A DNA stretch of 64,000 nucleotides from Octopus sinensis (Eukaryota). Under the pieces are notes generated by a model. That model was not told the origin of the DNA. It ran no database searches and was given only the letters and a program-made list of their open reading frames with translations. The stretch lies in contig NC_042998.1 in the NCBI RefSeq assembly GCF_006345805.1, positions 136,834,001 through 136,898,000 on the forward strand. Direction: 5' to 3'. The stretch's first letter is position 1. Each line of letters opens with the position of its first letter. Both the position numbers and the translations under genes were made by a program. Shown here piece by piece: positions 181 to 35,899 of the stretch.

Positions 181-2000
181 TTATTAGAAAAGAGTAATGT
201 TTTCTCGCGCAAAGAATATCTGATCATGTGCCTCACTATTCCGAAATTTATGCTTGCAGTCGGTCATATAAATCCTACCTACATATTACTTCGAGATTGT
301 GACTATGTGCAAATCAACCATTAAAATTAGCTTTTCTAAATTTCCGTTTCAGTGATTTTGAGTTATAAAAGAGTTTATAGAGGTATAAAAGAGTTTATAA
401 AAGAGTTTATTTTGAAATGCAATTTTATCTCACTTGTCAGCTAAGTGTCCTAGCTGAAATTTTCTCTGAAAAAATTATTTCTTTACTAATTGATGAAGAA
501 GTTTAAGATAAATAGTCTATGCTTCTAGGAAACAGAAGGTTATGGCGATGTTATTTCCTCATGAAATCGGACTGTTATGAACTGTAAGTAGGATTTTCAA
601 ATTATTTGTGACATACGGCTGACAACTTTATTAACCGGAGGAAATAGCATTAATAAATCCAGTTTATTATCACAATGAAATGTATTCTATAGATTGTATC
701 TGATCAATGTTGTCTCTACTAGAAGACAGTTAAATCTTTTGTTTAACTAGGACAAATGTTGAAGAAATTGATATCATTACTTTCTTGGAAACCAAGCTGT
801 GGCTTTATAGACGTGAGAAATAGAACTCAAAACATGAAGTAAAGTATTTATATTTTCATTAACCGGGAAGCTAGTTTTGTATCAATGTACGTACGTACAT
901 ACATACATATAAACATACATACATAGATACATACATTCACATGCATAACAACACTCAACAAAGAACACGATAAAAAAATTCTATTAGCTTAACGCTGAAT
1001 GTAAAAACGAAAGATATGTTTGACGTTTCGGGATTAAAATGTGCTTCGTCGGAAATAAAAACACACAAAGACGGAGAAAGAGGAGAGAAAGCAGGAGAAA
1101 AAAACGAGAGAAAGCAGAAGAAAAAAAAAGACAGAAAGAAAATGGAAACGAGAATAAAAAAAGATTTGCCCTATTTTTAAAGATATTTTTTATTTTTACT
1201 ATTTTTATTTTTAAAAGTAAAGCCAATATATTAACATGTTGGTGTGTATATATTTCGTACGTGCATTTATGATTATTTTACATAGGCAGGTGCACGTGTG
1301 TATGTTTTGTAAGCATTTGTGTGTATATTTGTACGTATGTGTTTAGTATGTGTGTGCTGATTGCTTGTATGTGGTTGATGTTATATAGAAATCTCAAATG
1401 GGGCACTGCATATTTTTCTATTTCCCTTATCCCTCTTATCCATTTTTCTTCCCTTTCATAAACTTGGATCCTCTTTTGCTTCTTCCTTTGATGCATTTAT
1501 TTTCATTCTAAACTACTTTGCTTGTTTGACTTACGCTTGATTGACTCTGTGTACTATTTACTTGTTTGTCTCCTCTTTACCTAGTTATCTTACTCGTGCT
1601 TTTCTACTAATATATATGTATATATATATATATATATATATATATATATATATATATATATGTGTGTGTGTGTGTGTGTGTGTGTGTGTGTGTGTGTATG
1701 CATGTATGTATGTATATATATATATATACATATACATACATATATATATATATTATATATATATATATATATATATATATATATATATAATTATTGTAGT
1801 AGATAAATGAATTATCTTATTACGGATAATTCACATGATAACCGATACCTGGGTAGCAAATATCACAACAGAAAAAACACGGTTGAAGTTACGACCATGG
1901 GGCATAAAAACCGTGCCTTAGTGCGGAAATTTGAAGTTTTATATATTAAGTGTAGGAAGAAATGGAGCTGAACGAAGATTTAACAAAATTCCTTTATATT

Positions 2001-2086
2001 ATTTTCTACATATGTTTCGAAGGCTGCAAAGTCCCTAATTCGGATTGAATAAGGAGTCCATTTTGCAGCTTTCTCTTCAGGAAAAT
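2001..2086 (-). ncRNA. type I hammerhead ribozyme
   Basis: Minus strand: AUUUUC-CUGAAGA-[GAAAGCUGCAAA...UUUGCAGCCUUC]-GAAA-CAUAUG-UA-GAAAAU. Stem I, core, long stem II, palindromic stem III and GUA cleavage triplet are all present. Confidence 0.85.
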
Positions 2087-2812
2087 CCAGGAACTTAATT
2101 CTCCAACAAAATGCACAACAAGCTTTTCGACAAACGCTCATGAGGAGCCCATGAAATAAATGACACAAACTGTCTATCTATATGCGTTGACGCCAGACTG
2201 GGTGAAATCAGAAGAGATTGTCCGTTGAGATAGTTCAAGGTCAGAATCCGGTTGGCAGAAGGGGGTACAGGAAAATCAAAGAGTGTGAATGTATTCTGTA
2301 TGACTGGTGTTTATATTTGAATTATTTTAAGAATGAGTGTTAGAGTGTTTGAGTGTGAGAAAATGCTTTAATGTATGTGTGTGTGCGTCTATGTATGTGT
2401 GACAGTGTGTTTCGAAGGCAGAAAGAGAGAGAGATATAGCAGGTATTAATGGTCAAGAAATACCTGCTATATCTCTCTCTCTTTCTGCCTTCGAAACACA
2501 CTGTCACACATACATAGACGCACACACACATACATTAAAGCATTTTCTCACGCTCAAACACTCTAACACTCATTCTTAAAATAATTCAAATATAAACACC
2601 AGTCATACAGAATACATTCACACTCTTTGATTTTCCTGTACCCCCCTTCTGCCAACCGGATTCTGACCTTGAACTATCTCAACGGACAATCTCTTCTGAT
2701 TTCACCCAGTCTGAAATATAGATAGACAGTTTGTGTCATTTATTTCATGGGTTCCTCGTGAGCGTTTGTCGAAAAGCTTGTTGTGCATTTTGTTGGAGAA
2801 TTAAGTTCCTGG

Positions 2813-2898
2813 ATTTTCCTGAAGAGAAAGCTGCAAAATGGACTCCTTATTCAATCCGAATTAGGGACTTTGCAGCCTTCGAAGCATATGTAGAAAAT
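2813..2898 (+). ncRNA. type I hammerhead ribozyme, core variant (GAAG instead of GAAA)
   Basis: Inverted copy of 2001-2086 reading ...ccttc GAAG catatg ta gaaaat; probably impaired. Confidence 0.7.
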
Positions 2899-3269
2899 AA
2901 TATAAAGGAATTTTATTAAATCTTCGTTCAGCTCCATTTCTTCCTACACTATATATATATGACTGTACTGGAGTATGGTGTGCGTTGTTAATAACAGGTG
3001 CCTTCAGTTTATTTTAAATTCTTAGATAAACCTATTTTAAATACCAATGAATCAATTTGGTCCCTAATACGTTTTAGAAAGACAAAATTTTCAAAATAAC
3101 TGCGATTTCATATAATAGTACCTTCCTATCCTTCATTCACTTTCGAGAGTGATCTTTTGTGTCACACTCGAAACTATAGAATGGAATCGAAGATTATGTA
3201 ATTTATGTTCTAATACAATAGAACCTACCTACCTACCTACCTACCTGTCATCATTTGTATCAGGTTTCA

Positions 3270-3672
3270 GTGGCTGTGTGGTAAGTAGCTTGCTAACTAA
3301 CCACATGGTTCCGGGTTCAATCCCACTGCGTGGCATCTTGGGCAAGTGTCTTCTGCTATAGCCCCGGGCCGACCAATGCCTTGTGGGTGGATTTGGTAGA
3401 CGGAAACTGAAAGAAGCCTGTCGTATATATGTATATATATGTATATGTGTATGTGTATGTGTGTGTTGTGTGTGTGTGTGTTTGTCCCTCTAGCATTGCT
3501 TGACAACCGATGCTGGTGTGTTTACGTCCCCATAACTTAGCGGTTCGGCAAAAGAGACCGATAGAATAAGTACTGGGCTTACAAAGGATAAGTCCCGGGG
3601 TCGATTTGATCGACTAAAGGCGGTGCTCCAGCATGGCCGCAGTCAAATGACTGAAACAAATAAGAGAGTAAA
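3270..3672 (+). mobile_element. tRNA-derived SINE family A, near full length
   Basis: A-box-like gtggctgtgtggtaag, B-box-like gggttcaatccc, internal TA/TG tract, 3' tail ggcggtgctccagcatggccgcagtcaaatgactgaaac; many other copies in the window. Confidence 0.85.
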
Positions 3673-4069
3673 GTGGAACAGAACTGAGCACGCAAAATTT
3701 ACAGTATTCGTAAGACAATTGACAGATAAACGATGGAATGAAATTGATAAAATAAGCTATATACATAAGCTATATGCATTTATGTTATTTATATTATTCA
3801 TAAAACTATTTTAAACTGTTATACAAAATCGTACATACAAACGTATATACATACATACACATACACATATATGTGTGTGTGTACATATGTATATATATTT
3901 ACGTATATATACATTTATTTATGTATGTATGCTTGCATGTATGTATATATATATATATATATATATATATATATATATATATATATATATACAGAAAACA
4001 AAAGACGAAGACAGATGTAGGAACAACAAGCAGGTGTATTTGTTTAACGCTTGGGAAGAATGGAAAAGT

Positions 4070-4105
4070 CTTTTACGTTTCGAGCCTATATTCTTCGACA
4101 GAAAG
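4070..4105 (-). ncRNA. degenerate minimal hammerhead-like motif in the Penelope pLTR
   Basis: Minus strand: CUUU-CUGUCGAAGA-AUAUAGGCUC-GAAA-CG-UA-AAAG; non-canonical core. Confidence 0.45.
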
Positions 4106-34606: not shown

Positions 34607-34688
34607 AACAACTCGAACCGCGGTTTCTGCTTCTTTCTAGCAAAACACAGAATATGTTTGCTAAGGCTAGCTTCGTCAGCGAGTCGCC
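34607..34688 (-). ncRNA. type I hammerhead ribozyme
   Basis: GGCGACUCG-CUGACGA-[AGCU..UAGCAAACAUA UUC UGUGUUUUGCUA..AGCA]-GAAA-CCGCGG-UU-CGAGUUGUU. Confidence 0.8.
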
Positions 34689-35338
34689 TAAATTGAATCG
34701 AGGTCTGCAGCGATGTGGGACCATGTGTTGATCTCGACTACTAGCAGATCTTAACTTTTCAAATCTCTGCGCAGACGCAAAACTTACACGGCAGTATAGG
34801 GCATGCCGGGAAGAATTTTACGAATAAATCCATCATGTAATATGCGAATATAAACAAGAAGGGTAGTAATATTATTTACTACCAGGTGCCCAGCACAAAA
34901 GACGAATTAGTCATAAGACAAAAATATTATTCATATAGAAAAATATTATTCATGTAGTTATACAATTAAGGGCTCCTAAAACGTTTTTGATTTTCACTCT
35001 CGATAAATTCATCCCCTTTTTGTGTTCCCAGCACTCGGCATCTTAATTTAGGAGCCCTTAATTGTATAACTACATGAATAATATTTTTCTATATGAATAA
35101 TATTTTTGTCTTATGACTAATTCGTCTTTTGTGCTGGGCACCTGGTAGTAAATAATATTACTACCCTTCTTGTTTATATTCGCATATTACATGATGGATT
35201 TATTCGTAAAATTCTTCCCGGCATGCCCTATACTGCCGTGTAAGTTTTGCGTCTGCGCAGAGATTTGAAAAGTTAAGATCTGCTAGTAGTCGAGATCAAC
35301 ACATGGTCCCACATCGCTGCAGACCTCGATTCAATTTA

Positions 35339-35420
35339 GGCGACTCGCTGACGAAGCTAGCCTTAGCAAACATATTCTGTGTTTTGCTAGAAAGAAGCAG
35401 AAACCGCGGTTCGAGTTGTT
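35339..35420 (+). ncRNA. type I hammerhead ribozyme (inverted arm of family 4)
   Basis: Reverse complement of 34607-34688. Confidence 0.8.
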
Positions 35421-35593
35421 AAAGTTATCGGTAAACGTTTTTGATTTTCACTCTCGATAAATTCATCCCCTTTTTGTGTTCCCAGCACTCGGCATCTTAA
35501 TTTAGGAGCCCTTAATTGTATATATATATATATATATATATATATATATATATATATATATATATATATATATATATATTATTTTATAGAAGG

Positions 35594-35644
35594 AGCTTCT
35601 ACAGGACTAGAACTGTTTCATTCAGATGAAATCATCAGGAAGCT
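35594..35644 (-). ncRNA. type I hammerhead ribozyme
   Basis: AGCUUC-CUGAUGA-UUUCAUCUGAAU-GAAA-CAG uucuaguc CUG-UA-GAAGCU. Confidence 0.85.
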
Positions 35645-35681
35645 GGCTGTCAAAAAAAACTTGTTTTTTTTTTTGACAGCC

Positions 35682-35732
35682 AGCTTCCTGAAGATTTCAT
35701 CTGAATGAAACAGTTCTAGTCCTGTAGAAGCT
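35682..35732 (+). ncRNA. type I hammerhead ribozyme
   Basis: agcttc ctgaaga tttcatctgaat gaaa cag ttctagtc ctg ta gaagct. Confidence 0.85.
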
Positions 35733-35899
35733 CCTTCTATAAAATAAATTACTTTACTCTGCTATTTATTGAGTACCTTATTTACTGTGGTTAATCCCGA
35801 CTCAACCCGGGACCTACATATATATATATATATATATATATATATATATATATATATATAGAGAGAGAGAGAGAGAGAGAGAGAGAGGGAGAGAGATAG

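Follow-up and report, generated by a model that had tools for sequence, protein, structure and literature searches.

Non-coding repeats with putative hammerhead motifs in Octopus sinensis share the insertion architecture of Penelope-like elements

Insertions of Penelope-like elements (PLEs) have been described as partial tandems with an inverted 5'-truncated copy, often with a tail at one end only, and with a bias towards (TA)n (passages of Craig et al. 2021, PMC8557442). How PLEs build these tandem and inverted insertions is described there as still undefined. In vitro, a purified PLE protein acts on both target strands, which it cleaves and extends, and RT starts at two internal sites with the tail lying between them (passages of Frangieh et al. 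2024, PMC11167929). Dual hammerheads, 100-700 bp apart and on opposite strands, have also been found near PLEs; the passages of Cervera and de la Pena 2014 (PMC4209133) report for these no polarity rule, end sites or mechanism, unlike the insertions described below.

A second group of similar elements is the metazoan non-LTR retrozymes (Cervera and de la Pena 2020, PMC7229834; Li, Clavereau and Pollet 2026 preprint, doi 10.64898/2026.07.22.740005). In the passages concerned these are non-coding tandem repeats bearing type I hammerheads, in which helix III has 2 bp and the 4-nt loop is palindromic; they have been proposed to depend on PLEs. The same passages of the retrozyme literature do not mention head-to-head inversion, (TA)n targeting or fixed 3' sites, and in PMC7229834 the words 'inverted', 'microsatellite' and 'orientation' occur 0 times.

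The window analyzed here, a stretch of 64,000 nt of the Octopus sinensis genome, contains six retroelement insertions (F1 to F6), each of which is an inverted pair within (TA)n. F1-F5 are non-coding families with hammerhead-ribozyme motifs, and F6 corresponds to a PLE 3' end. In each family the 3' ends fall at two fixed sites, one upstream (U) and one downstream (D), 34-150 nt apart. The features are as follows.

1610..1789, no strand: (TA)n/(TG)n tract, left flank of F1 (TRF and sequence)
1790..2447, minus: F1 left arm, complete 658-nt element (positions 1-658) with the site D end; putative hammerhead core at 2080
2448..2458, no strand: F1 centre, 11-nt spacer; both flanking arms extend to element position 1
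2459..2959, plus: F1 right arm, element positions 1-508 with the site U end, then a short TA run
2819, plus: putative hammerhead core of the F1 right arm, in which GAAG replaces GAAA
15750..15806, no strand: (TA)n, left flank of F6
15807..15980, minus: F6 left arm, autonomous PLE 3' end including the 34-nt tail (site D)
15981..16301, plus: F6 right arm, PLE 3' end without the tail (site U), extending 177 nt further inward
~16115-16150, plus: degenerate hammerhead-like motif of the F6 right arm, UUGAAGAG
16295..16324, no strand: (TA)n, right flank of F6
19157..20770, minus: F2 left arm, 3.4 x 480-nt units with site U as the 3' end; cores at 19342, 19822 and 20300
20768..20906, plus: F2 right arm, 139 nt, spanning site U to site D exactly
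20904..20995, no strand: (TA)48 common to the right end of F2 and the left end of F3
20993..23243, minus: F3 left arm, 3.75 units of ~600 nt, 3' end at unit 137 (site U); cores at 21285, 21885, 22484 and 23082
23240..23988, plus: F3 right arm, 1.25 units, 3' end at unit 147; core at 23687
23989..24027, no strand: (TA)19, right flank of F3
34335..34398, no strand: (TA)32, left flank of F4
34394..34980, minus: F4 left arm, 1.29 x 454-nt units, 3' end at unit 201 (site D); core at 34679
34979..35522, plus: F4 right arm, 1.2 units, 3' end at unit 90 (site U); core at 35348
35519..35579, no strand: (TA)30 separating F4 and F5
35579..35659, minus: F5 left arm, element positions 3-83 (site U); core at 35638
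35665..35817, plus: F5 right arm, element positions 1-153 (site D); core at 35688
35818..35860, no strand: (AT)21, right flank of F5

At all six loci (TA)n adjoins every outer arm end, that is, the RNA 3' ends. F2-F4 have a tandem structure, while F1 and F5 are single-unit elements. The arms of F2, F3 and F4 overlap in the assembly by 3 nt (AAT, 20768-20770), 4 nt (CTGT, 23240-23243) and 2 nt (AA, 34979-34980), respectively, which bears out the few nucleotides of central microhomology noticed earlier in these families. No ORF of at least 130 aa overlaps the arms of F1-F5. An RT ORF beside F3 (24605-25774, minus) was rejected as a partner; its RT is LINE-type-like and it has no GIY-YIG match.

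F1-F5 carry putative type I hammerhead motifs. The conserved core CUGANGA ... GAAA with H17 and helices I, II and III can be read from the sequence, and the 2-bp helix III is capped by the palindromic loops AUAU, GUAC and CGCG, which agrees with published metazoan hammerheads. A structural descriptor consisting of the hammerhead core and the three helices gave 13 matches in the window, all within F1-F5, and 0 in 60 dinucleotide shuffles used as the control. At gathering scores Rfam gave 0 matches over the whole window; with the limit relaxed to E 10, the matches were confined to low-complexity sequence or miRNA-like hairpins, and no hammerhead was among them. In thermodynamic folds of six motifs, helix I and parts of helix II form, with z-scores of only -0.2 to -1.2. 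The F6 motif (~16121, plus) has U rather than C at core position 3 and a helix II of 2 bp, and was missed by the structural descriptor. The cores of F1-F5 lie on the minus strand in left arms and on the plus strand in right arms. The earlier note, which was made from the sequence of the window, had described this strand rule and the inverted repeats, and both hold at all six loci; the minus-strand cores of F2 and the plus-strand motif in the right arm of F6 agree with it as claimed. Its ribozyme coordinates differ by a few tens of nucleotides from those given here because they mark other points of the motif.

The same polarity is found across the genome. In samples of the six families, the RNA 3' ends point outward (minus then plus) in 86 of 86 two-armed loci, 80 of which are outside the window, and the reverse order (plus then minus) occurs at 0 of these 86. 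This count comprises 22/22 two-armed loci of F4 (among 40 loci), 27/27 of F2 (among 39 of 40 listed loci), 16/16 of F3 (among 21 loci taken from ~40 listed), 6/6 of F5, 7/7 of F1 and 8/8 of F6; two-armed loci make up more than half of those sampled. The 3' ends are constant and the 5' ends variable at the F2, F3 and F4 loci, so that RNA polarity is established independently of the ribozyme motif. The central junction differs at every locus. The proposal that both outer ends are RNA-sense 3' ends is thus borne out, and polarity, which might have proved random genome-wide, has the predicted orientation throughout.

The two arms of an insertion are not equivalent. One begins at U and the other at D, and thus the U-to-D 'tail' is present on one arm only. 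The same site was used by both arms at 0 of 81 loci with both ends read, ~71 of which have the canonical U/D pair. In F2 the two sites are about equally used, and an independent choice would give 0/27 same-site pairs at a probability of 2^-27. Single-orientation loci favour one site (D in 16/18 for F4 and 10/12 for F2, U in 4/5 for F3). The earlier note placed the outer ends at or near short TA-rich patches, and they do fall at the patches that it named. As a rule, however, TA-richness fails: the longest alternating TA run of F2 (ATATAT, unit 185-190) is used by 0/66 arm ends and that of F3 (ATATATA, unit 415-421) by 0/34. The arm ends are specific start sites and not simply the most TA-rich patches, and TA microhomology alone is insufficient. 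TA-like sequence makes up the last 3-6 nt of the start sites. In contigs from four sequencing runs there are copies that end in (TA)n at D of F4 (35179), U of F4 (35068) and U of F5 (35749).

A CCCTT-like motif is located 10-20 nt upstream of the start sites in families that are otherwise unrelated.

F6 is the 3' end of a ~4-kb autonomous PLE, which codes for RT, a CX4CX2C linker and GIY-YIG. An 811-aa ORF at one locus of the family (L148) matches RVT_1 at E 1e-6 and, at its C-terminus, GIY-YIG at E 0.029, which is weak and below the Pfam cut-off; it is 56% identical over 776 aa to the ORF of another locus (L139), which has RT and an above-cut-off GIY-YIG match. A PDB sequence search with the F6-family ORF gave no match. 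L148 is a tandem copy with a direct repeat spacing of 3979 nt, and L142-L147 are inverted 5'-truncated pairs with arms of 302-1903 nt. The 34-nt tail is on exactly one arm in 6/6 pairs; a further pair, L146, was unresolved by the probe. A first look across the genome gave 5029 GIY-YIG candidates, some of them in open frames of 775-883 aa. Across the four PLE loci compared, no sequence is shared with F2-F5. For F1 there is an F1-like piece beside the PLE at L141 (76% over 156 nt) and a weak 42-nt match in L138.

The five non-coding families nevertheless have the insertion signature of a PLE, and in polarity, U/D tail rule and (TA)n flanks they match F6. By this signature, F1-F5 are likely PLE-dependent non-autonomous elements. 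The architecture itself is already known from PLEs, and the six families are well-supported further members. Compared with canonical C-terminal GIY-YIG EN+ PLEs, as described in the passages of PMC8557442 and PMC11167929, they share the partial tandems, the inverted 5'-truncated copy at the 5' side, the one-end tail, the (TA)n or AT-rich target, hammerhead motifs (in F6 a degenerate hammerhead-like motif) and two internal RT start sites. They differ in that five of the six families have no ORF, in the U-to-D distance (70-150 nt in the five non-coding families, against a PLE tail of 30-40 bp), and in start sites that end in short TA-like sequence. In common with the non-LTR retrozymes of the passages cited above, F1-F5 are non-coding repeats, in tandem in F2-F4, with putative type I hammerheads of this helix III and loop form, and a dependence on PLEs is proposed; the units here are 454-603 nt, and F1 and F5 are single-unit.

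We consider it probable (roughly 80%) that these are PLE-type insertions into (TA)n in which both 3' ends of the cut target primed RT and the two cDNAs were joined head to head by microhomology. The left arm is antisense on the top strand and the right arm on the bottom strand, which is the geometry expected of two cDNAs primed by two target 3'-OH ends. It is likely that the cut target primes reverse transcription from both of its strands, in line with an earlier proposal for PLEs. In this model a PLE RT-EN would act in trans on the non-coding families and cut both strands of the (TA)n target, and the first cDNA would start from D, its partner from U, or the reverse. Multimeric (or circular) templates would account for arrays of more than one unit; divergence within arrays and between arms is too noisy to separate rolling-circle from multimeric templates. 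The cDNAs would then pair by their 3' ends across 0-8 nt, in some cases with a filler of 1-13 nt, and each would serve as the template on which the other is filled in. Among F2, F3 and F4 loci, 38/65 junctions overlap by at least 2 nt, versus ~16-20% by chance in our own estimate. Template editing or hypermutation was also considered and rejected; there is no A-to-G excess, and indels dominate the differences between copies.

Single priming followed by snap-back would yield the same polarity. In that scheme a single target-primed cDNA would fold back and be copied to form the second arm, which the opposite (TA)n end would capture at a TA-like site inside it. The centres of F1 and F5 are symmetric with loops of 4-11 nt, as a fold-back would leave them, but this symmetry is also explained if both cDNAs reached a defined RNA 5' end (positions 1-12). 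At six loci (window F4, L052, window F6 and 3/7 F1 loci) neither arm contains the other or can be derived from it, so that two independent RNA-templated syntheses are required there and snap-back is impossible. In the tandem families arm containment is common, with one arm formally a possible copy of the other in 20/22 F4 loci, and snap-back is therefore ruled out at those six loci only. Snap-back leaves unexplained why the captured end is always the other fixed site, and we regard it as improbable. Less probable still is that members of one family entered a (TA)n tract on two separate occasions, in opposite orientation by chance. Tracts are indeed reused (F2/F3 and F4/F5 each have one in common, and L084 has a second copy past 8 TA repeats), but chance orientation does not fit a polarity of 86 to 0 or the 0/81 loci with a common 3'-end site, and none of the junctions of F2, F3 or F4 retains (TA)n between the 5' ends. 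In most cases, moreover, the closest relative of an arm is its partner. In F4 the partner ranks first, alone or tied, at 9/16 loci, with at most 16% of other loci matching better in every locus, and 18/22 F2 loci are within the top 30%; at four F2 loci (L070, L081, L085, L095) an arm is closer to most other loci than to its partner, and about half of the between-copy differences are indels, which may be assembly noise.

Palindromes beside microsatellites are a known weak spot of long-read assemblies, and the inverted arms might be an artefact of fold-back in the library or the assembly, or a palindrome that arose in the DNA itself where a (TA)n tract broke. The contig pieces from the four sequencing runs are short (60-100 nt), and none was shown to bridge the F4 junction. 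A fold-back, however, predicts identical outer ends, and here the U-to-D tail always sets one end apart from the other; F2-F4 have asymmetric junctions, every locus has its own arm lengths and junction position, and the flanks beyond the arms are unduplicated. The same architecture has been described for PLEs in other genomes (passages of PMC8557442), and we consider such an origin about as improbable as that of two chance insertions. Least probable of all is an origin as DNA transposons of the Foldback or MITE-like kind, which have long terminal inverted repeats and target TA. Such elements would show the inverted arms and the TA-rich targets, but fixed termini are absent, the inner junction varies per locus, one outer end is unlike the other, many copies have a single orientation and a truncated 5' end, and the tandem units bear ribozyme motifs.

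Within the model of two primed cDNAs, the strict U/D complementarity bears on the open mechanistic question of PLE integration. No strand difference is reported in the passages on the PLE in vitro system (PMC11167929), unlike here, where the arms always use different start sites. A tentative explanation, which we think somewhat doubtful, is that each two-armed PLE-type insertion is made by one integration complex bound to one RNA with two initiation motifs, of whose two active sites one would use D on one target strand and the other U on the opposite strand, never the same site. If true, it would explain the long-puzzling one-sided 'tail' together with the tandem and inverted PLE structures and would be a genomic read-out of a dimeric RT-EN; with the CCCTT-like motif, it would point to a signal for template choice in trans. 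Any model of PLE integration has to account for three invariants, namely 3' ends that point outward, two fixed start sites and arms that never use the same site. Each family provides young and readable insertions by the dozen, and these invariants could be examined directly in the in vitro system already published. Hammerhead-bearing, retrozyme-like repeats of an invertebrate genome are here tied to PLE machinery via the insertion signature and not by sequence similarity.

In L1 twin priming the second target strand primes on the RNA, and the inverted 5' part is joined to the direct part via microhomology. The 3' ends face outward, and the two segments are adjacent on one RNA. The insertions described here are similar in the likely second-strand priming on RNA, the likely microhomology join and the outward 3' ends. 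They differ in that the arms start within 34-150 nt of each other near the 3' end of the element and mostly overlap in content. The earlier proposal of twin priming from both target strands is supported in its geometry, in its polarity, by the six loci with independent copies and by the published biochemistry of the purified PLE protein. The L1-style contiguity of the segments is not significant for F4, in which 13/22 loci are near-contiguous versus 11.2 expected from partner shuffling (P 0.26). The window F2 locus does fit the L1 style, with its two arms contiguous on one RNA.

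Within positions 1790-35818 of this AT-rich, microsatellite-dense window lie six inverted-repeat loci, each bounded by (TA)n tracts. These loci are insertions of the Penelope-like element (PLE) type. F2 and F3 have one (TA)n tract in common, and F4 and F5 have another.

Inverted-repeat loci of the window (left arm, RNA sense on minus; right arm, RNA sense on plus)
1790-2959, F1, single-unit element of 658 nt
15807-16301, F6, inverted-repeat locus
19157-20906, F2, tandem array with a 480-nt unit
20993-23988, F3, tandem array with a unit of about 600 nt
34394-35522, F4, tandem array with a 454-nt unit
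35579-35817, F5, single-unit element of about 150 nt

One unit of each family was used as a query against the 2.72-Gb assembly. From 537-2600 first-look matches per search, 40 candidates were scored, and loci were then fetched for F4, F2, F3 and F6. The census is partial, and the sampled copies are young ones that most resemble those of the window. The ends of the arms are not scattered; each family has one upstream (U) and one downstream (D) 3'-end site, and the sequence from U to D, here called the tail, is carried by one arm only.

Loci sampled and 3'-end sites of each family (unit positions)
F1: 40 scored from the match table, 7 two-armed; U 508, D 656-658
F2: 39 of 40 listed loci examined, 27 two-armed; U about 474-480, D 127 of the next unit
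F3: 21 of about 40 listed loci examined, 16 two-armed, with 3 right arms cut by the fetch boundary; U 137, D 232-247
F4: 40 loci examined, 22 two-armed; U 90, D 201-209
F5: 40 scored from the match table, 6 two-armed; U 83-85, D 153
F6: 40 scored and 7 stretches fetched, 8 two-armed; U ...TTTTCTTAT, D 34 nt further, ...AAACTTTCTTAT

In all 86 two-armed loci a minus-sense left arm is paired with a plus-sense right arm, and both RNA 3' ends therefore point outward. The opposite order, with 5' ends outward, was found in none of the 86 loci sampled. The outward polarity that the earlier note had read from the window alone therefore holds across the genomic sample in all six families. Copies with one orientation only share a constant 3' end while their 5' ends vary, which establishes the RNA polarity without recourse to the ribozyme motif. 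The sole plus-then-minus case, the F2 locus L084, was rejected as an exception because eight TA repeats separate its two 3' ends, marking a separate neighbouring insertion.

In a scan for CUGANGA...GAAA, all left arms had hammerhead cores on minus and all right arms had them on plus. Our stricter descriptor required the core, a helix I of at least 5 bp, at least 3 closing pairs in helix II, a helix III of 2-4 bp and a nucleotide other than G at the cleavage position. It matched 13 times, always within F1-F5 and nowhere else in the 64 kb, and gave no match on 60 dinucleotide shuffles. In F1, F3 and F4 helix III is 2 bp long with palindromic loops (AUAU, GUAC and CGCG). Metazoan type-I hammerheads, for which action as dimers has been proposed, are described with this form (PMC4209133). 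By motif, those of F1-F5 are putative type-I hammerheads. A search of Rfam returned no hammerhead at any threshold tried, the folding energies of the motifs are unremarkable, and core position 3 of the F6 motif is U.

The two arms of a pair do not end alike. Both ends could be read in 81 two-armed loci; about 71 are plain U/D pairs, and none has the same site on both arms. The nearest to an exception is the F3 locus of the window, with ends at 137 and 147. U and D are used about equally in F2, so independent choice would give 27 mixed pairs out of 27 with a probability of 2^-27. Among single-orientation loci the favoured site is D in F4 (16/18) and F2 (10/12) and U in F3 (4/5). Four independent sequencing runs yielded short contigs in which copies end in (TA)n at F4 D, F4 U and F5 U. 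The earlier suggestion that outer ends fall at TA-rich patches stands in part. Each site does terminate with 3-6 nt that are TA-like, yet the sites are not selected by TA content: where alternating TA runs are longest, in F2 and F3, 0/66 and 0/34 arm ends fall on them. In F2-F5, families that are otherwise dissimilar, most 3'-end sites have a CCCTT-like motif 10-20 nt upstream. The F4 unit has three CCCTT copies (positions 36, 77 and 186, sense strand only; window 35014, 35055 and 35164), each followed by an observed end (at 41-43, 90 and 201), with a background rate of 6e-4 per nt. This motif may be a signal for the initiation of reverse transcription.

The same polarity is expected if a single cDNA snaps back and is copied on itself, and 20 of 22 F4 loci do allow one arm to sit inside the other. 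Snap-back is excluded, however, where neither arm contains the other; there both arms must have been copied separately from RNA. Such is the case at the F4 locus of the window and at L052, another F4 locus. At the F6 locus of the window the tail-less arm extends 177 nt further inward than the tailed arm, and at 3/7 F1 loci the U arm greatly exceeds the D arm in length or reaches past it. Similarity between partners is a blunt test because indels, which may be assembly noise, make up about half of the differences among copies. With that limit, the F4 partner arm is the best or tied-best match in 9/16 loci and always among the closest 16%, and the F2 partner arm is among the closest 30% in 18/22 loci, with four clear outliers. 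Priming by both target strands, as the earlier note proposed, is the best-supported mechanism.

The position of the central junction is different at every locus, which indicates independent events; in the window the F2, F3 and F4 junctions are at 20768-20770, 23240-23243 and 34979-34980. The few nucleotides of microhomology noticed in the window recur: the 65 tabulated junctions of F2-F4 overlap by at least 2 nt in 38 cases, against about 16-20% expected by chance on our own estimate, and by 1 nt in 11; 7 are blunt and 9 have a filler of 1-13 nt. The arms of F1 and F5 usually both start in the first dozen bases of the element, so their centres resemble symmetric hairpins. Over the F4 unit (34979-35432 of the window), the F2 unit (19637-20116, minus) and loci L031-L107 of the genome set, 5' ends of arms cluster in the roughly 100 nt that follow the predicted site of ribozyme cleavage: 33/62 in 22% of the unit for F4 and 28/66 in 21% for F2, in intervals picked after the data had been seen. 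F3 has no such excess downstream of its predicted site (6/37). The clustering is a hint that the RNA template has often undergone self-cleavage. At one fetched locus, L070 (G000:C8:42096456-42100655), the minus arm is 99-100% identical to the window copy and the plus arm 91-97%, the plus arm diverging most near the junction.

F6 is the 3' end of a longer element. At the genomic locus L148, F6 sequence lies downstream of an 811-aa ORF that has a reverse transcriptase (RT) domain and, C-terminally, a weak match to GIY-YIG. Over 776 aa it shares 56% identity with another ORF of the same genome, whose GIY-YIG match is above the Pfam cut-off. Ahead of the GIY-YIG part of the L148 ORF is a CX4CX2C stretch, a linker type tied to (TA)n preference in Neptune-like PLEs (Craig et al., PMC8557442). 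The element is tandem in L148, with a spacing of 3979 nt. Six other loci have a long copy and an inverted 5'-truncated copy, each with its 3' end next to (TA)n. In 6/6 resolved pairs exactly one arm has the 34-nt tail. GIY-YIG candidates number thousands in the genome, some in open frames of 775-883 aa. An F1-like hammerhead piece adjoins one PLE of this genome; F2-F5 have no similarity to the four PLE loci compared. A further hammerhead family lies next to a PLE with an open 781-aa frame (L139, 6165-7571) as an inverted pair between (TA)n tracts, minus-sense arm left and plus-sense arm right.

PLE insertions are described as partial tandems, often with an inverted 5'-truncated copy upstream and a tail of 30-40 bp, often at one end only; some clades have a (TA)n bias, and the insertion mechanism is called still undefined (Craig et al. 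2021, PMC8557442). In contrast to R2 and L1, a PLE protein purified from the anole element cuts both strands and extends each of them; its reverse transcription begins at two neighbouring positions inside the RNA, the tail being the sequence between them (Frangieh et al. 2024, PMC11167929). Cervera and de la Pena 2014 (PMC4209133) noted hammerheads paired on opposite strands at distances of 100-700 bp. A 2020 retrozyme paper (PMC7229834) contains none of the words 'inverted', 'microsatellite' and 'orientation'; a 2026 retrozyme preprint has 'inverted' in a reference title only and 'microsatellite' once, on satellite origin. The three papers listed as combining 'twin priming' with 'Penelope' do not concern PLE structure. 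This analysis contributes the scale on which the polarity rule holds, five non-coding hammerhead families with 'tails' of 70-150 nt to which the PLE signature now extends, and the strict U/D complementarity of start sites within a single insertion. Such complementarity differs from what the in vitro anole study (PMC11167929) reports at the population level. It suggests that one complex may engage two start sites simultaneously.

Other features of the window were recorded. An element at 24028-25774, minus, has an RT ORF (RVT_1 E 5e-31) that is LINE-like in our judgement; the 3' side of the element adjoins the (TA)19 tract that terminates F3. ORFs with PIF1-like helicase domains (39647-42271, plus; E 1e-58) are possibly part of a Helitron-type element, and a C2H2 zinc-finger ORF lies at 44578-45093, plus. 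A dispersed repeat of about 400 nt with a SINE-like layout is present in at least five copies of 75-87% identity (3271-3672, 8219-8502, 26286-26543, 30502-31302 and 46722-47085).
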